From a virus, in IMG/VR virus record IMGVR_UViG_3300022916_000008, positions 1 to 64,000 of that record: a stretch of DNA of 64,000 bases. One strand, given 5' to 3'. Of this stretch, positions 5,459 through 46,116 are shown piece by piece. Each line of letters opens with the position of its first letter. Positions within the stretch are counted from its first letter, which is position 1. Position numbers and translations under genes: made by a program. The notes beneath the pieces were generated by a model, which saw only the letters and a program-made list of their open reading frames with translations, was not told where the DNA came from and did not search any database.

Positions 5459-5761
5459 TTAATTACCTTCAAGTGTATTGAAAACAAATCCTATTACTTC
5501 TGGCATTGCATAGACCTCACCAATCCTTTTCTTGATTTCTGTGATCTCCTCTGCCGTCAACTCTCCTTCGCTCTTCATGGTGCTAATCTTCTGAGCCATA
5601 TTGTAACGCTTGAACTTCTGCTCGCCTGTTATCTTTTGATCTGACTCTGCTGCTGTTAAAGCAGTAATGATTGCATCCTTTACGGTCATGTTCTTTCCAT
5701 CTGCATCAGGAATCTTGTTTCCATTCAGAAGGACGATCTCTTTCTCTAGTTGTACTTTCAT
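5459..5761 (-). CDS. Small helical protein, possible tail fibre chaperone
   Basis: 100 aa, KFKRYxxAxKI...ELTAEEITEIKxxIG; follows a fibre-like gene. Confidence 0.45.
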   Translation of the reverse strand: MKVQLEKEIVLLNGNKIPDADGKNMTVKDAIITALTAAESDQKITGEQKFKRYNMAQKISTMKSEGELTAEEITEIKKRIGEVYAMPEVIGFVFNTLEGN

Positions 5762-5788
5762 ATCTCTATTTTAATTTGGTTACTAATT

Positions 5789-6823
5789 CTAAGCCACTAC
5801 AGGCTGTGTTCCTCCAACACCAGCTCCAACTCCAATGATATACCATTTGCCATTGGTAAATATAAAGTCTACACTATCACCAGCAGCCAATAAGGTCACA
5901 TTGGTATACTCTGCACTTGCAGGAGCAATAACACATGATCCACCATCTGATACGTGAATACATGTCAGTCTTTGCCCTTCTATGCCATTGGCAATAGTCA
6001 TTGCATCTGCGCCTGTACTTGTTAGCTCTGCAATAGGTTGTGTTATAGGAATTGCGCCTGCTCCTGAACGAGTAGCTGTTCCTCCAAACACAATGTTTCC
6101 TGCTGTTGCGTTAATGGCTATTCCACTACCTGCGTTAATATTAAGAGCCGAGCCTGTTGTAAGGGATGCTGCTTGGATGTCAAGCATTAATCCTACTGTT
6201 GCTCCTGTACCGTCAAGGTGTAACAAAGAGGCTGCTGCGGTCATTCCTGCTCCGCCACCTGTGATGATCATTAAGTCACCATCAACCTGATTAGTTGCAG
6301 TAAGCGAGATAACACCTGTAGCTCCAACATAAGCGCCAGTAGTGCTAACAGCTAGTGCTGTACCAAGAGTGGCTGCTCCGGCACTAATATTAAGGACACC
6401 ACCTGCTGCAGTTGCAGTTGCTCCACCACCTGTGAGTTTTGCAACCCATCCAGTAGTAAGTCCTGTAGCCGAAACACGAATAATACCTGCTGATGTTGTT
6501 GCTGAATCAGCCTGACAAAGTAGTAATTCACCGTTTGTTGTAATTGCACTAGAAGATGTAAGAGACAACCCTGTACCTGTTGTTAGTGCATCAAAACTCC
6601 CATCGATACCTGTACCTGTAGTTAATGAGTCACAAGTAAATGGGAACACTGTGCTTGTTGTAGCATCAGAAGTAATAATAAACTGCTCTGTACCTGATAG
6701 GGTAAAAGTAGCTGTATCTAATGAAGAAAACATCGAGTCAATGAGGTCCGTCCAGATCCTTTGTGTCTGTGTATCCCCATGAACGAACATTTGTTTTAAA
6801 TTAAGTTTTGTTTGTACTGTCAT
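5789..6823 (-). CDS. Fibre/spike-like structural protein
   Basis: G/A/T-rich beta repeats (LTTGTGL, LTTGSAL). ATG at 6823 preferred over the TTG at 6841. Confidence 0.6.
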   Translation of the reverse strand: MTVQTKLNLKQMFVHGDTQTQRIWTDLIDSMFSSLDTATFTLSGTEQFIITSDATTSTVFPFTCDSLTTGTGIDGSFDALTTGTGLSLTSSSAITTNGELLLCQADSATTSAGIIRVSATGLTTGWVAKLTGGGATATAAGGVLNISAGAATLGTALAVSTTGAYVGATGVISLTATNQVDGDLMIITGGGAGMTAAASLLHLDGTGATVGLMLDIQAASLTTGSALNINAGSGIAINATAGNIVFGGTATRSGAGAIPITQPIAELTSTGADAMTIANGIEGQRLTCIHVSDGGSCVIAPASAEYTNVTLLAAGDSVDFIFTNGKWYIIGVGAGVGGTQPVVA

Positions 6824-6898
6824 TGTTTTGTTATTAAACAATTTGATTGAATAATCATATAAAATCTATTATGTGCTACCGCGCTATGTTCTCCTGTT

Positions 6899-7531
6899 CT
6901 AAAGTATGTCTGAACTAATAATATTATCTATTCTCTTTACTTTTCTATTCTCCTTAATGATGTCAAAGTTAAATACTTTTCTTGCAGAAAACAAAATGCT
7001 CTTGTCTGTAAAGTATCCAACTGTATATTCCATACCCTTTTTCGTTTGCCATCCACCATGTATTCCAACAGCAAACCCAGGCTTTATCATTGCATCTACT
7101 CCTATTGTCGGACCAGACTTCCATTTACTTATTGTTATTGTCTCAACGGTCTTATATGGCAACAACCACTTGTATGATAGCTGTCTGTCCATAAGCGTTC
7201 CCCACACGAATATGTCTCCGTAAATTTCAATGGAATCATTACCGTCTTGTATCTTATATCTCCTGACGCTATCACATTGACCTTCCAGATATACCAATGA
7301 TGTGTCATACTCTTTGTAGTACACTGAATTCTCATTAGTAGTATATACGTTTTGTGTTATATGGATAGTAGTGTCATAGTAGTGATTGATAACAATGGTA
7401 GTATCTGAGCCATTTAAAGAGCCGTCAGTGGACGATAGCCTTTTGGATACTAAAATACCCGATACAAATAAGATCGTGGCTATGAGTACCGCTAAAAGGC
7501 TTGTAACTAATATGTTCTTGTACTTACTCAT
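6899..7531 (-). CDS. Membrane-anchored lysis protein (spanin-like)
   Basis: N-terminal TM helix, DTT repeats and C-terminal beta strands; follows the endolysin and holin genes. Confidence 0.5.
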   Translation of the reverse strand: MSKYKNILVTSLLAVLIATILFVSGILVSKRLSSTDGSLNGSDTTIVINHYYDTTIHITQNVYTTNENSVYYKEYDTSLVYLEGQCDSVRRYKIQDGNDSIEIYGDIFVWGTLMDRQLSYKWLLPYKTVETITISKWKSGPTIGVDAMIKPGFAVGIHGGWQTKKGMEYTVGYFTDKSILFSARKVFNFDIIKENRKVKRIDNIISSDIL

Positions 7532-35060: not shown

Positions 35061-35232
35061 GGGAATATGGTGGAATGGTAGACACGCTACATTAGTAGTT
35101 GAGCAAATAAGGTAGCTCCTTACAAACAGAGAACTTTGACATATAAAGAATGTACGGTCTTTGTGTTGATGAAAGTATCTGAAGACTATAGACAGTAGTT
35201 GCTCAGTTCAGGTTCGAATCCTGATATTCCTA
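35061..35232 (+). ncRNA. tRNA-like RNA (Leu-type D arm) with a large insert in the variable arm
   Basis: Acceptor GGGAATA/TATTCCT+A; D arm GGTGGAATGGTAGACACG; T arm TCAGG-TTCGAAT-CCTGA; insert closed by TGAGCAA/TTGCTCA; 172 nt. Confidence 0.75.
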
Positions 35233-38408: not shown

Positions 38409-38467
38409 AGATGTGTAGCTCAGTTGGTAGAGCTTTTAGGTCGTGGGTTCAAGTCCCACCACATCTA
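38409..38467 (+). ncRNA. Minimal tRNA-like RNA lacking the anticodon arm
   Basis: AGATGTG-TA-GCTC AGTTGGTA GAGC-TTTT-AGGTC-GTGGG TTCAAGT CCCAC-CACATCT-A; all three remaining stems are perfect. Confidence 0.75.
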
Positions 38468-40940: not shown

Positions 40941-41520
40941 ACTAAGATCAGTTGTGCCACTGATGAGAAATGACGCACACAACACATGGACATCAAGCCG
41001 TGGAGATTTAATGTATGATTTCAGCCTAGAAGTTGAAGTAGACGACAAGGTGCTTACAGGATCGGCAAGTGCAAAAAGAGATGTGTTTAGATTCAAAGCT
41101 GGTGATCAAATAGTATTTGAATACAAAGAGAATGATAATCCCGCATATCCTGCTAAGTTCAGTAAGGTGGCTGACCCTAACTATCAAGCAAGTGGTGGAG
41201 GTACTGGTGGTGCTCGTAAGGGAGAAGACTTTTATGTTAAGATGAAGGTTGGTATGTGTAAGAGTACAGGCAGTAAGCTTGCAGTTAATGCAGCTATTAA
41301 TCTTAAGAAAGAAGTGTCATTGGATAACCTCTATGCTCTTACTAAGTTATTTCAAGGCTGGTTGCTTACTAATCCTACTAATCAAGAGGATATGTCCAAG
41401 CGTATGAGTGCTTTGTCAAGAGCAGTAGAATGTATTGTATTTGATAACCTCAACATTGCAGACAGTAAGGCAATCTTAACTTGTGCTGATTTGTGGTTGG
41501 CTAATGTAAGCTTTGAATAA
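40930..41520 (+). CDS. Putative ssDNA-binding/annealing protein (N-terminal OB fold)
   Basis: Beta-rich N-terminus, Gly linker, helical C-terminus; next to an exonuclease. Confidence 0.45.
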   Translation: MKGKLRSVVPLMRNDAHNTWTSSRGDLMYDFSLEVEVDDKVLTGSASAKRDVFRFKAGDQIVFEYKENDNPAYPAKFSKVADPNYQASGGGTGGARKGEDFYVKMKVGMCKSTGSKLAVNAAINLKKEVSLDNLYALTKLFQGWLLTNPTNQEDMSKRMSALSRAVECIVFDNLNIADSKAILTCADLWLANVSFE

Positions 41521-42350
41521 TGAAGAGCTTAGTCGACAAAGAAGGTAATGTCCATTTAGGATCAAGCCTTATTAAACAAATATATTACAAGGGAGAAGAA
41601 AGAATCCATTGTCCGAGAAAGATCTATATCAGCTATGTAGCCAAGTCTCATAAGTCACCATCAAGTATATATATGCTTAGAGGGCTATACTTTGAATACA
41701 AGTGCTTAGGGGCTATGAGTTCTCATCAAGAAGATGTCCCTGATTGGTCATCATTGTTCTATGCAAGAGATCAGGAGAAGCCATTAGCAGAAACAGATCG
41801 TGTATTAAGGCAAGTCGATAATTTCAGAGAAAGAATCATTCCTCCTTATGGGTTAGAAGTTGATGAAGTAAGGGTTCAGGTAAAAGGAGAAAAGCTTTTA
41901 GAAGATCACAAGATAATATTAGAGGGAGAAGCTGATCTTATTAGTCCGGTATCTTTTACTGCACAGAACAAGGAGTATGTCTTTGATGATTGCATTATTG
42001 ATCTTAAGCTTACCGGAGACCTTGGTAATGATTTTGGGGAATTCAGTTGGGCAAAGGCTCAGGATATGGATCACATACAAGCATATATCTATGGAGCTAT
42101 ATGGGAACTACCATTCATGTACTTTGTGTTTGACTATAAGAAGAACCCAGAGTTCCTTCCCATACTTAAGACCATGAAGGGTGTAGAGGCTATGGAGTAC
42201 ATGCAGACTGTTCTCAATGCAAAGGAAAAGATTCTTGAGTACGAAGAAAAGAAGTGGCCAGCAGTGTCTTCATACAAGCTATGTAAGAACTGTATGCTGC
42301 AAGATGTATGTGATAAGTTTATCAATAAGCCTGATGCTGTAATCATATGA
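41520..42350 (+). CDS. PD-(D/E)XK exonuclease, Cas4/AddB-like
   Basis: HCPRK, GEADL, IIDLKLT, QAYIY and C-terminal CKNC..DVC. Confidence 0.8.
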   Translation: MKSLVDKEGNVHLGSSLIKQIYYKGEERIHCPRKIYISYVAKSHKSPSSIYMLRGLYFEYKCLGAMSSHQEDVPDWSSLFYARDQEKPLAETDRVLRQVDNFRERIIPPYGLEVDEVRVQVKGEKLLEDHKIILEGEADLISPVSFTAQNKEYVFDDCIIDLKLTGDLGNDFGEFSWAKAQDMDHIQAYIYGAIWELPFMYFVFDYKKNPEFLPILKTMKGVEAMEYMQTVLNAKEKILEYEEKKWPAVSSYKLCKNCMLQDVCDKFINKPDAVII

Positions 42351-42647: not shown

Positions 42648-42788
42648 TGGAAAACTTATGGAAGATCCTTATGATCTCCATTGTTGTAGGAGTAATACTC
42701 TATCAGCTATGGAAGCGTATGTGTAAAGAAAAGCAATACACAAGAGATTTTGATAACAATCTTAAAAAACAAATCAAAGACAGACAGA

Positions 42789-43235
42789 ATGAAAGAATAC
42801 AAAAGTAATATCACTACATACAGACTTGTTAAAGAGCCTTGTGAGATTAAAAAGGTTAAGATAACTAAGTCCGCAGAAATTGCTGAATACTGCCGAGCTT
42901 TTTGGCATGACGACATAGGTATATACGAGAGTTTCTTTCTATTGCTAATGAACCGGGCAAACAATACCACTGGTTATGTTAAGATAAGCCAAGGTGGTGT
43001 CTCTGGAACAGTTGCAGACCTAAAGATAATCATGAAGTATGCAATTGAAGGACTAGCAGCAGCAGTAGCAGTCGTTCATAATCACCCATCTGGAAACATG
43101 AAGCCAAGTCAAGCAGATATTGAGTTGACAAAAAAGATCAATGATTCATGTAAACTAATGGATATAGCATTGCTAGATCATTTGGTTATTACCGAAGAAA
43201 GTTATTTCAGTTTCGCTGATGAAGGTCTTTTATAA
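42789..43235 (+). CDS. radC: RadC-like JAB domain protein
   Basis: ESF..LLMNRAN, HNHPSG..PSQAD and LLDHLVI. Likely start MKEYK. Confidence 0.9.
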   Translation: MKEYKSNITTYRLVKEPCEIKKVKITKSAEIAEYCRAFWHDDIGIYESFFLLLMNRANNTTGYVKISQGGVSGTVADLKIIMKYAIEGLAAAVAVVHNHPSGNMKPSQADIELTKKINDSCKLMDIALLDHLVITEESYFSFADEGLL

Positions 43236-43250
43236 GGTTTTCTTTAATTG

Positions 43251-43306
43251 GCTATAACGGTTTGTGTATGGCATCGTTTTAATGTGCTATACACGTTGTT
43301 AGGTGC
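43251..43306 (+). repeat. attC-like palindromic site 1
   Basis: CTATAAC...GTGTATGGCA/TGCTATACAC stem...GTTAGGT. Confidence 0.6.
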
Positions 43307-43336
43307 TTTTTAAAATAAATATTTAAAGATAAAACT

Positions 43337-43474
43337 ATGTTAAAAAACGAATGGTGGACAAAGCCAAACCCAGAAGGAATAAGCAATAAAGATGTACTAC
43401 AAGTGTTTTGTGCTTGGTTAATGATACAAAGCGTGTGTATAGGTAGTTACCTATTTATTTTATATTGCACCTAA
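43337..43474 (+). CDS. Cassette-borne small hydrophobic protein (45 aa)
   Basis: MLKNEWWTK...LYCT; stop codon lies inside GCACCTAA of site 2. Confidence 0.5.
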   Translation: MLKNEWWTKPNPEGISNKDVLQVFCAWLMIQSVCIGSYLFILYCT

Positions 43475-43556
43475 TGTGATCTTGTATAAATTGAGTGTGG
43501 CATTTTCGCCACACGGTAGATTTTGGATGCCACATTCAGTTTATACATTGTTAAGA
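43467..43556 (+). repeat. attC-like palindromic site 2
   Basis: GCACCTAAT...~22 bp imperfect stem TGTATAAATTGAGTGTGGCAT/ATGCCACATTCAGTTTATACA...GTTAAGA. Confidence 0.6.
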
Positions 43557-43671
43557 TTAGTTACACAAGGGAATGATAAATATTTTAATAAATAGCGAGA
43601 CTGATCGATGTGGTATTCATACAAGATCACATTAAGGTTAATTAAGTTTAAAAGGAATTAAAAAAGAAAAC

Positions 43672-43878
43672 ATGAAGATAATAAACGGAGTAATATTAGT
43701 GCAACTTGATGATCGTGATGGAGTTTTTCAAATAGATATGAAAGAAGAAAGGTTTAAATTAGCATTAAGGTTAATTCAAGAAAAAATATATAAGTTTGAA
43801 CCTATGCCAATATTTGATAAACCCATTGAAGAAGTACAGTTTGTTTTTAATGATTTAAACGACCCGAAGGGTAATTAA
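43672..43878 (+). CDS. Cassette-borne hypothetical protein (68 aa)
   Basis: Bounded by ATTAAGGTTAATTA and TAATTAACCTTAAC. Confidence 0.55.
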   Translation: MKIINGVILVQLDDRDGVFQIDMKEERFKLALRLIQEKIYKFEPMPIFDKPIEEVQFVFNDLNDPKGN

Positions 43879-43930
43879 CCTTAACTCTAAGCTATGATTC
43901 GTTTTTAATGAATTATAGCGACAGTTATGG
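43879..43930 (+). repeat. attC-like palindromic site 3
   Basis: CCTTAAC...GCTATGATTCGT/ATGAATTATAGC stem...GTTATGG. Confidence 0.6.
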
Positions 43931-44266
43931 GCAGTTTTAATTATCAAACTAATGAAAAAGAAACAAGAATTAATAAAGAAGACACGTCCTTGGCATAAAG
44001 AAAGGTGTGTATGTGGACATATGATTTATTGGAGTAGAACAAAAGGTGAGTATAGATGCCATTGTTCTAATCCTAAACCCTTTAATAAACAACATGATGG
44101 AAGGACAATATACAAATGAGGAAATGTTGGCTATGTCTAATATTATTACTTCCGTTGCTATGATGAACAGAGGACTTATAATTCGTAAAGTTGGAAGAAC
44201 TGTAAACTATTACAGCAAATGTTCTGATGACAGTTGGTTGAACTATGATTGTAAAACAACAAGCTA

Positions 44267-44614
44267 ATGAAAATTGAATTAATATCAAATCAACAACATC
44301 TGTTTATTAAGGAAATGTATGAGAAGCATCCAGTATTGACTTCCCAAAATGAAGGTTATGAATATATTGATAAATCGAAGTTTGCCAAAGAAGAGAAAGA
44401 AGCTTTTGATAATATTGAAGCTATACTTAAGAAGCATATAACAGGATTTCATGAATTCAATAACTTTAGAATATCAAGAAAGACTAATGAGTTAGAATTG
44501 CGCTTTCAATATTCTTGGACTGCTGATGATCCTGATTCTAGAGTTTCTTTTTCAGGAGTAGGATACATTTTACTTGATGAACTTTTAAACGGATTTGATA
44601 AACTTCGTAGGTAA
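44267..44614 (+). CDS. Hypothetical protein
   Basis: 115 aa, coupled by TAATG. Confidence 0.55.
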   Translation: MKIELISNQQHLFIKEMYEKHPVLTSQNEGYEYIDKSKFAKEEKEAFDNIEAILKKHITGFHEFNNFRISRKTNELELRFQYSWTADDPDSRVSFSGVGYILLDELLNGFDKLRR

Positions 44615-44916
44615 TGACTACCCAAGAAATATATGACAGAGCCGTAAATTATGGTTGTAGTCTTGAATGTACATGTGTAGACATAACGCAAAACAAATGG
44701 GATAGTCTTATGGAGGGACACACCAGAGCAAATCGGATATTAGTTGTAAAAGCTGCAATGATAGCTGGAATACTAAATGATGAAGAAGGTAGAAAAGAGA
44801 CCAGACAACCTTGGCATAATCCTTATAATCATTACAAAACTAAAACGCATTTGATCTATGTCCATCCCTGTACTGAACACTTTATAAAAGTAAATGATGA
44901 CGAGAGACGTATTTAA
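44614..44916 (+). CDS. Hypothetical protein
   Basis: 100 aa, TKTHLIYVH..EHF. Confidence 0.55.
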   Translation: MTTQEIYDRAVNYGCSLECTCVDITQNKWDSLMEGHTRANRILVVKAAMIAGILNDEEGRKETRQPWHNPYNHYKTKTHLIYVHPCTEHFIKVNDDERRI

Positions 44917-45078
44917 GGAATTAGGGAACATTCTTGACCCTAATAGATGTGAGAGCTGTATACTCATGGAATCGGGTAGAAATACTACTATATGCAGGGC
45001 AAATGGGAAGCCTATTCCTGATATCACTGGACAGCCTATATGGTGTCCTAAAAAGAAAACCCTTTAATAAACAAGACA

Positions 45079-46116
45079 ATGAATAAACCAAAAAAGACAG
45101 AAGAAGTAAAAGAAGTAATCGTGCAAAAGATTATTATCGAAGACAACAGTAAGGCAGTAGAGCTGACACTTGATCAGTTGAGAGAAACAAGAACGTTTGC
45201 AGATGCATTTGGTAACATGCCTGAGAAGTTCCTTAAAGAACACCATATCTTTATCAAGGATATTATGGATATGGCAGAAGGTGTTGGTGCAAAGCCTAGC
45301 ATAGGACAGATATTGGCTCCATCAAAAGGTATTGAGAAAATATCATTAGCAGAAGCAGAAGAAAAAGGACTTGATCAGGACCTTGCCGAGAACACTTGTG
45401 TAAAGGTCGTTATTGGACGTATTGATCTTGGTGATAAGTTTGCCAAGAAGTTATGGAATCTTGCAATAGGGTTCATGTATAATGAAAAGGGAATGGAGAT
45501 ATGCGTTGGCACTAACATCGCTATATGTAGTAATCTCACAATCTTTGGTGAAGGAGTTCATTACAAGAGTCATGGACGTGGCGCAATTAGTATATCCGAG
45601 ATGTATGTTAATGTAAAAACATGGCTTGAGAACCTTGAAGGTTTTGATACTGTTAATTCAGAGCTACTGGAACGTATGATAGCAATTCCTATTGATTGGG
45701 ATAAAGGTACTGAATCATTCGTTGGTCACTGTCTTAAAGCTGCTGTAAGGCGTAATTATCATAAAGGCAATGCTTTTCCTTTAAACATGACAGAAGTAGG
45801 ACGTATGACCTCTTATTTGATCGGACAAGAAGGAACAGAAGATGCTGAGAACCCTTCATTGTATCACTTGTATAATGCCGGAACATGGTTGCTAACACAT
45901 TCAGATGATTTACCAAATAAGTATGGTACTATCAAAGAGTTTACTGAATGGTTTGAGAAAGAATGGTTAATCCCTGCAGAAGAAGTTGCTGCATTAGCTG
46001 TTATCGAAGAGCCTTTTAAGGATGAAGTTGAAAACGATGAAGGACTTGCTAATGTACCAGACAATATTGTAGATGATACAGGGTTTCCTCTTGAAGATGA
46101 TGGTAATGGAGAATAA
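45079..46116 (+). CDS. DUF932-like protein
   Basis: GTNIAICSNL and SLYHLYNAGT motifs. Confidence 0.55.
   Translation: MNKPKKTEEVKEVIVQKIIIEDNSKAVELTLDQLRETRTFADAFGNMPEKFLKEHHIFIKDIMDMAEGVGAKPSIGQILAPSKGIEKISLAEAEEKGLDQDLAENTCVKVVIGRIDLGDKFAKKLWNLAIGFMYNEKGMEICVGTNIAICSNLTIFGEGVHYKSHGRGAISISEMYVNVKTWLENLEGFDTVNSELLERMIAIPIDWDKGTESFVGHCLKAAVRRNYHKGNAFPLNMTEVGRMTSYLIGQEGTEDAENPSLYHLYNAGTWLLTHSDDLPNKYGTIKEFTEWFEKEWLIPAEEVAALAVIEEPFKDEVENDEGLANVPDNIVDDTGFPLEDDGNGE

Follow-up and report, generated by a model that had tools for sequence, protein, structure and literature searches.

A putative integron-like array of single-gene cassettes in a phage genome without a recombinase of its own

The locus and its gene order

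The window analyzed here (the whole stretch of 64,000 nucleotides that was examined) is the first 64 kb of the 90,856-bp IMG/VR virus record IMGVR_UViG_3300022916_000008, a phage genome estimated to be 93% complete. Near 43 kb it carries three imperfect palindromes, here named sites 1, 2 and 3, which are members of a family of TAAC-hairpin-GTTA elements. On the plus strand the order is a RadC-like JAB gene, site 1, a 45-aa open reading frame (ORF), site 2, a 68-aa ORF, site 3 and a 55-aa ORF; the three ORFs are co-directional and are set apart by the sites. We lean towards the view that this locus is a small recombinase-less outpost of an Xer-linked, integron-like cassette system, in which recombination would take place at one or other foot of a folded hairpin. 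The features are listed below, with site scores from R1, a covariance model of the family.

42750..43235, plus strand: RadC-like JAB-domain gene (Pfam PF04002, E 2.5e-36), the backbone gene left of the array
43250..43304, plus strand: site 1, a canonical family element that folds (65.9 bits, E 2e-17, with R1 trained on other contigs plus site 1 itself)
43298..43475, plus strand: cassette A, starting with GTTA-GGTG (43298-43305) and ending with CACC-TAAT (43468-43475)
43337-43474, plus strand: 45-aa ORF, inside cassette A
43467..43556, plus strand: core of site 2, a divergent member of the family whose apex is enlarged (22.5 bits, E 1.2e-3)
43469..43637, plus strand: composite palindrome around site 2, RNA fold, with an outer 20-bp stem (43472-91 with 43615-34)
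43631..43885, plus strand: cassette B, starting with ATTA-AGGT-TAATTA (43631-44) and ending with TAATTA-ACCT-TAAC (43872-85)
43672-43878, plus strand: 68-aa ORF, inside cassette B
43882..43927, plus strand: site 3, a looser family element (fold z -2.6)
43952..44119, plus strand: 55-aa Cys-rich ORF from the ORF list, the first gene past site 3, kept in the X18 strain
43301..43881, no strand: block replaced in a near-identical strain from run X18, covering both cassettes and site 2

The initial annotation of this locus, made from the sequence alone, had described three palindromes between small ORFs, with stop codons in or beside the left box of each. All three are found where it placed them, and the stops agree: the 45-aa ORF ends on the TAA of site 2, the 68-aa ORF ends 4 nt before the TAAC of site 3, and the RadC-like gene ends 20 nt before the TAAC of site 1. 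It had also stated that the window holds no tyrosine recombinase. A search with PF00589 found none there, nor in the remainder of the 90,856-bp record; a site-specific enzyme, if there is one, would thus act in trans.

The family boxes are confined to 43.25-43.93 kb of the 90.8-kb genome, which contains no second copy of this 700-nt stretch. Rfam gave no match at sites 1-3, neither at the gathering threshold nor at E≤10. Elsewhere in the window, Rfam tRNA matches at 38409-38467 and 35061-35232 are not accompanied by an ARAGORN call. Protein family searches with the 55-aa Cys-rich ORF gave no match, and no homologues of the 68-aa protein were found outside this phage.

Structure of the three sites

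Site 1 consists of a TAAC box (43255-58), a stem formed by 43264-73 and 43285-94, the loop TCGTTTTAATG (43274-84) and TGTTA (43297-43301). Its DNA fold has a z of -2.7, and the same hairpin type recurs in contigs L045, L047, L049, L072, L128 and L138. Site 3 has the same layout, with TAAC at 43882-85, a stem within 43891-43919, the loop TCGTTTTTAATG at 43899-43910 and GTTA at 43924-27. The loop TCGTTTT(T)AATG is common to sites 1 and 3, as had been noted in the initial annotation. Despite its family loop and boxes, site 3 gave no match to the R1 model at E≤1; its stem type, GCTATGA...TTATAGC, is also present in L047 and in Polaribacter phage P12002L. The shared loop word by itself is not enriched within the window; it derives its meaning from the family and not from the window. 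A text search of the literature for this word returned a single match, an unrelated primer.

The core of site 2 is a hairpin (43483-43547) followed by TGTTA (43549-53), with 21-nt arms that are 90% complementary, and it is nested within a 165-nt palindrome (43469-43637). As RNA this region folds with -62.3 kcal/mol (z -7.5) on the plus strand and -51.5 kcal/mol on the minus strand, and the most stable of all 70-nt folds in the genome (90.8 kb scanned) lies within it. It contains a terminator-like hairpin (43495-43514) and a 20-codon micro-ORF (~43573-43635). On the left the palindrome has a single foot, and on the right it has two alternative ones, GTTTATAC-AT-TGTTA at 43540-53 and ATTCATAC-AAGATCAC-ATTA at 43615-34, and its four copies of the GTGGC/GCCAC word would permit two mutually exclusive pairings. 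In its sequence it looks like a site with an inserted tiny or decayed cassette, or like a switch. A pattern made from the GTGTGGC motifs of site 2 was discarded, as its sole match was one unrelated GC-rich sequence.

A family of covarying hairpins in phages and Bacteroidota

A family pattern was derived from the recurring intergenic element that flanks cassette A on 16 metagenome contigs (see below). Matches to the pattern were found on at least 119 IMG/VR contigs and at 113 positions in bacterial genomes (96 of the short form, nearly all in Bacteroidota). The consensus (alignment A3) is TAAC, 4-6 nt, a stem of 10-12 bp, the loop TCGTTTTAATG, the other arm of the stem, 1-3 nt and TGTTA. Across the stems 92% of the cells are paired, and 201 cells with changes on both sides were counted, against 65 ± 10 in shuffled alignments, none of 500 of which reached this number. 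Slid controls for stem pairing were also far below the observed value. The family is real, and its stem is under strong structural selection. Both arms of each hairpin covary, which rules out a crossover within the conserved loop.

One explanation of the locus would be that sites 1-3 are ordinary, unrelated terminator hairpins whose resemblance to cassette borders is due to chance in AT-rich DNA. The lack of enrichment of the loop word in the window would be expected under this explanation, as would the DNA folds of single sites, which are only modestly better than those of shuffled sequences. It is refuted by the family covariation and by the model matches: the E-values for sites 1 and 2 are 2e-17 and 1e-3, more than 200 homologous and covarying elements exist elsewhere, and the borders of the modules are exact. 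We give it next to no credence.

Carriers of the element include cultured phages, namely Cellulophaga phage phi19:3 and Polaribacter phages Freya_9 and P12002L, the last of which has five to six sense-strand copies upstream of a methyltransferase gene and small genes. Copy numbers per bacterial genome are low (1-11), and the copies are clustered; the complete chromosome of a Fluviicola strain has six to seven elements among accessory genes at 2.526-2.553 Mb. The initial annotation had proposed searching Bacteroidota genomes and phages for the site and for linked recombinases, and such a search retrieved both.

Several pattern matches carry labels from outside the Bacteroidota (giant virus, Pelagibacter, archaeal, gammaproteobacterial): L131 (a GVMAG contig), L181, L189/L204 (a Methanolobus metagenome-assembled genome), L207 and L231. 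L189 and L204 carry true family arrays and are probably misbinned phage contigs, and L131, L181, L207 and L231 look like chance matches to the pattern.

The low copy number is relevant to a further explanation, in which the elements are selfish palindromic repeats inserting between genes, of the kind known as miniature inverted-repeat transposable elements (MITEs) or repetitive extragenic palindromes (REPs), and the cassette pattern is a by-product. Short palindromes with terminal inverted tetranucleotides (TAAC/GTTA), an occurrence in many unrelated genomes and a hairpin-less junction in L046, TATAAC-GT-GTTATGTGC, would all suit such repeats. But bacterial genomes hold just the few clustered copies mentioned above, by which a REP-like repeat was rejected, and a MITE within this phage was rejected as its genome has no other copy of the 700-nt stretch. 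Direct target duplications were not seen, and stems that covary freely around a fixed loop are unlike recent copies of one element. Nor does this explanation predict complementarity across a gene instead of across the element, which is described below. We regard selfish repeats as improbable.

Orientation and position relative to genes

In phages, 102 of 105 copies are co-oriented with the genes. The element lies directly after a stop codon, which in 24 of 67 copies is the TAA of its own TAAC box, and the next ATG follows at a median distance of 43 nt. Both observations are what would be expected if the elements were RNA hairpins and cistron-closing stems (intercistronic terminators, or else processing or stability signals to which a conserved factor binds via the loop) and the cassettes were shuffled by ordinary or relaxed homologous recombination. 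We consider this the less likely account, though one that deserves serious weight. It is also favored by a strong sense-strand bias of G.U wobbles (given below) and by site 2, where the plus strand folds 11 kcal/mol better than the minus strand and encloses a terminator-like hairpin. The contigs that RNA-library runs X19 and X20 yielded at this stretch were all short.

Other observations are hard to reconcile with a role in RNA. On large bacterial contigs, 39 copies are antisense to the genes and 29 are sense; in the antisense copies the stop is the TAA of the reverse TGTTA. With chromosomal copies mostly antisense, the mRNA would bear the complementary loop, which makes it hard to maintain that the function rests on a single RNA loop sequence. 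The absence of the element from the rest of the 91-kb genome means that it is not a general punctuation of this phage.

Hairpin promoters of the N4 type, as used by virion RNA polymerases, were considered and set aside: according to the phi14:2 paper there is no shared early motif, and the wobbles favor the non-template strand.

The two ends of a cassette are complementary to each other

The initial annotation had proposed that the start of each cassette pairs with its own end, as in integrated circles, and the pairings it gave hold. For cassette A, GTTAGGTGC (43298) pairs with GCACCTAAT (43467) at 8 of 9 positions, within an extended 28-nt inverted repeat of 82%; for cassette B, ATTAAGGTTAATTA (43631) pairs with TAATTAACCTTAAC (43872) at 13 of 14 positions and includes a 13-nt perfect inverted repeat.

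The same relation was scored throughout the family by comparing the four variable bases after GTTA with the four just before the next TAAC and accepting only exact reverse complements. Perfect 4-mers were found in 13 of 38 phage cassettes and in 10 of 22 cassettes on genome contigs (23/60), with means of 1.3 and 1.1 and maxima of 6 and 5 in 2000 shuffles. Between the two flanks of one hairpin, a match was found in just 4 of 154 phage elements and 4 of 98 elements on genome contigs. The pairing of cassette ends spans 10-14 nt, for example GTTAGGTGTAGTAT with ATATTACACCTAAC, and the terminal inverted repeat of the family can be written GTTA-N4-TARTAT ... ATAYTA-N4-TAAC. Both cassettes of the window follow this rule (GGTG with CACC; AGGT-TAATTA with TAATTA-ACCT), cassette B fitting the end consensus GTTA-N4-TARTAT, and so does one chromosomal cassette of Fluviicola.

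Statistically strong across the family, the rule corresponds to how core and inverse core sites are related in integrons. For a function in RNA it poses a difficulty: with a complementarity specific to each cassette, across 200-2400 nt and in dozens of genes that are unrelated, every case would call for an RNA function of its own.

Two loci contain what may be called empty cassettes (L048, 1650-1725; L086, 2400-2460). Here, GTTA-GCAAA-TCGTTTTAATG-TTTGC-(T/C)AAC is placed between two normal elements, such that a stem of the cassette type directly closes the conserved loop and encloses no gene.

Exchange at the cassette borders

Homologues of the 45-aa protein (67-98% identity) are encoded on the 16 metagenome contigs mentioned above. 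By blastn these contigs are otherwise unrelated to this phage, and cassette A is the sole DNA that they have in common with it. The left end of the shared segment is mostly 43297, in some cases 43237-44 (which includes hairpin 1) or the ATG; the right end is 43474 in nearly all. Next to the cassette of the 45-aa ORF there are at least six different neighbors downstream and at least four upstream.

A near-identical strain was represented among the seawater-run contigs of X18. One of its contigs matches the window across the RadC-like gene and site 1 and diverges after 43300 (GTT|A), and a second is unlike the window until 43882 (|TAAC of site 3), from where it matches 43882-44270. A fixed gene order with no exchange at these borders, which the initial annotation had named as the observation that would speak against it, was therefore not seen, either in the 16 contigs or in the X18 strain. 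These comparisons support the reading of the sites as junctions of mobile single-gene cassettes.

The X18 strain has a second difference further downstream, where a 1744-nt contig joins 44270 to 45064 with a loss of 793 nt. The lost segment (44271-45063) covers the 115-aa, 100-aa and 57-aa ORFs, from the first ATG to the end of the last ORF, and ends before a conserved 345-aa gene; no family hairpin is present at its borders. An identical 345-aa protein is encoded on 8 contigs. Two distant relatives found via this gene (L038 and L039, 57% aa identity) have no hairpins in the slot and instead carry three other, tightly packed and overlapping genes (238, 130, and 93 aa; 5549-6995); they are too distant to reveal cassette borders. 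In the window the slot is bracketed by conserved genes at 41520-42350 and 45079-46116. The whole variable slot is, judging by these alignments, hyperplastic. Among 28 loci of RadC-based relatives, no synteny with the window locus was found.

Throughout the family we asked which neighbor a hairpin is inherited with. The same hairpin was present in 18 of 71 pairs sharing the upstream flank (25%) and in 46 of 148 pairs sharing the downstream flank (31%), with a background of 1.4%. A hairpin is thus co-inherited about equally with either neighbor, so that the unit of exchange would be bounded by the inner feet of both hairpins. An assortment of hairpins independent of gene bodies is compatible with RNA signals shuffled by homologous recombination, for which there is a precedent in T4-type phages (PMC2839356, PMC4122927). 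However, 53 of the 71 pairs that share the left flank have different hairpins, which would place the crossovers within ~8-10 nt, short for homologous recombination.

On the 2-kb contig L042 the same hairpin and the start of a 51-aa ORF occur twice (763-887 and 1938-2062), after two different genes; the duplication begins exactly at the TAAC box.

Xer-like recombinases at the GTTA end of related arrays

An Xer-like recombinase of 265-276 aa is encoded in 9 of the at least 119 viral loci. In 9/9 of these the array lies upstream of the recombinase gene and is co-oriented with it, and no element is found beyond the gene. Among the cultured phages, Freya_9 encodes a 271-aa Xer-like integrase after the array, and in phi19:3 a tyrosine recombinase follows 0.5 kb downstream. 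An Xer-like fragment is located 3.8 kb past the Fluviicola array, on the GTTA side, and in two further genomes the elements are 1 kb and 2.9 kb from recombinases. The linked recombinases score 96-142 bits on TIGR02249 (cut-off 265) and are below the cut-offs for XerD, XerA and integron integrases. Linked recombinases are, by sequence and position, Xer-like enzymes of ~270 aa that flank the array at its GTTA end. This constant placement is left unexplained if the elements act as RNA.

Comparison with integrons

The initial annotation had attributed the end pairing to the R''/R' logic of integron attC sites and had suggested that the phage captures accessory genes through an attC-like system acting in trans. 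The own-end pairing bears out part of the first claim (8/9 and 13/14 in the window; 23/60 in the family, where ~1.2 would be expected), whereas the R-box consensus and the inheritance of the hairpin do not follow it. As to the second, the cassettes appear mobile and no recombinase is encoded in cis, but membership of the attC/IntI system is not borne out.

If the sites were genuine attC sites of a classical integron, the locus would be a cluster of attC sites lacking integron-integrases (CALIN) recombined by the IntI of a host. This would fit the TAAC...hairpin...GTTA geometry and the own-end rule, which resemble inverse-core and core sites, and in the window the right box of site 1 (GTTAGGT) agrees with GTTRRRY. 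It is the only box there to do so: the left boxes are CTATAAC, ACCTAAT and CCTTAAC, and the other right boxes are GTTAAGA and GTTATGG. Of 186 family elements, just 16 agree with RYYYAAC and 21 with GTTRRRY, and the attC consensus thus fails. The conserved extrahelical bases of attC sites are absent as well: the aligned stems of 72 elements are continuous save for an optional 1-nt gap, with no conserved bulged G or T, and the wobble pairs favor the top strand. A hairpin of this family is not tied to the upstream gene, as inheritance with that gene and crossover only at G|TT would demand. Of the intI gene (with the IntI-specific insertion) and the attI that would accompany the array in a complete integron, the intI is missing from this phage, whose 90,856 bp contain no PF00589 match, and the linked recombinases elsewhere are, at ~270 aa, under the integron-integrase cut-off. 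Complete integrons are nearly absent from Bacteroidetes (10.1101/2022.02.28.482270).

A direct assay exists for one family member. A CALIN has been described in P12002L, and of six phage sites assayed with IntI1 only P12002L_attC1 failed, yielding no attC × attI1 recombinants (Qi et al., 2023; PMC9892861). This site had been called by HattCI alone and failed the Infernal step (PMC9892861, Table S3). Its primer sequence is that of a member of the present family, with the loop TCGTTTTAATG and 57 bits. The HattCI call is in favor of a classical attC, and the failed Infernal step and the negative assay are against it. We consider membership of a classical integron very improbable; the system, as its sequences suggest, works like an integron but is not one.

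P12002L_attC2, which was recombined by IntI1, has two copies in the P12002L genome (L059; 29175-29243 and 37200-37266). They are on the opposite strand to early genes, at gene 3′ ends and in one case between convergent genes. With the present family this site shares only the ...GT-TGTTAGG foot.

Comparison with other systems

The arrays are akin to integrons and CALINs in having co-oriented single-gene cassettes, a site placed after the stop, AAC/GTT boxes around a hairpin, own-end complementarity and integrase-less arrays in virulent phages. They differ from them in that the loop is conserved, whereas the apex of attC is variable, in that extrahelical bases are missing and in that the linked enzyme is short and Xer-like.

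The nearest described relative, likened by layout and with the intergenic motif and recombinase sequences uncompared, is the rAID-1 array. [quoted passage not shown] The two have in common their occurrence in Bacteroidota, the co-directional low-GC accessory genes with repetitive intergenic sequences, and a terminal recombinase that is XerD-like and not IntI; the Fluviicola array is arranged likewise, its recombinase being 5′ of co-directional genes. Two or more co-directional genes with repetitive intergenic sequences are present at our locus. The terminal XerD-like recombinase is missing here, but the 9 related viral loci and Freya_9 have one, and another lies beside the Fluviicola array. 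The present family differs from rAID-1 in being found in marine, Flavobacteriia-type phages and chromosomes, in having tiny ORFs of unknown function as cargo and, for this phage, in lacking a recombinase; in addition, the phage arrays run towards the recombinase, whereas rAID-1 arrays run away from it.

Promoter early stem-loops (PeSLs) of T4-type phages are conserved intergenic stem-loops proposed as a substrate for homologous recombination that shuffles cassettes (Arbiol 2010, PMC2839356; Comeau 2014, PMC4122927). They too are intergenic stem-loops in hyperplastic regions of lytic phages that flank small non-essential ORFs, and they mark points of insertion, deletion or replacement between relatives. 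But PeSLs occur many times per genome, with a sigma-70-like promoter, in one phage lineage, whereas the present family occupies one locus in this phage, spans phage families and host chromosomes, and has a cassette-specific terminal complementarity of a kind not described for PeSLs. Repeated promoter and terminator units, as in PeSLs, were not found here, with 20 sigma-70-like matches against 30 in shuffles.

Xer recombinases can act on hairpin-folded single strands, as on the attP of the CTX phage, and the pdif modules of Acinetobacter plasmids, which are flanked by inverse Xer sites, move between replicons. The sites of both are dif-like 28-bp cores with conserved arms, unlike the TAAC-hairpin-GTTA elements with their cassette-specific 4-mers.

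A possible mechanism and its weaknesses

In the Xer-linked interpretation that we favor, the sites would fold as single strands and would be recombined by an Xer-type recombinase supplied in trans by the host or by a co-infecting phage. Crossovers would take place at one or other hairpin foot (TAA|C or G|TTA), and hairpins and gene bodies would consequently assort independently.

Several observations weigh against this interpretation. The roughly equal co-inheritance of the hairpin with both neighbors is unlike classical attC and requires crossovers at both feet. Some junctions lie at an ATG with microhomology only (L042 vs. L045). The family member P12002L_attC1 was negative in the IntI1 assay (PMC9892861). 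A recombinase is seen in just 9 of 119 viral loci, several of which are related phages. On the sense strand of phage elements, G.T wobbles outnumber A.C wobbles by 57 to 7, and in the cassette-end stems by 19 to 3, an excess that is the expectation for an RNA structure; the chromosomal class has 12 of each, in a noisy count. Lastly, the evidence is drawn throughout from sequence comparison, and the site-specific, enzymatic and single-stranded character of the recombination is something that we infer.

As a tentative extension, which may or may not hold, Bacteroidota and their phages, lytic ones included, could share a second, independently evolved capture system of the integron type. It would be built on a short Xer-like recombinase without the IntI insertion and on folded TAAC-hairpin-GTTA sites that it recombines at either foot, and it would let small genes circulate between chromosomes and unrelated phage families, with enzyme-less phages borrowing the recombinase in trans. 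The ‘CALIN’ of P12002L and the rAID-1 arrays would then be the same system.

If the elements are true recombination sites, they would provide a mechanism by which the lytic phages of a phylum that is major in the sea and in the gut, and almost without integrons proper, trade small genes with host chromosomes and between phage families. The “attC” site published for a phage is reinterpreted here as a member of a different and much larger family, and this family is linked to the Xer-associated arrays of Bacteroidales. With a consensus, a covariance model, the end-pairing rule, cultured carriers and candidate enzymes, the family is both searchable and testable at the bench.

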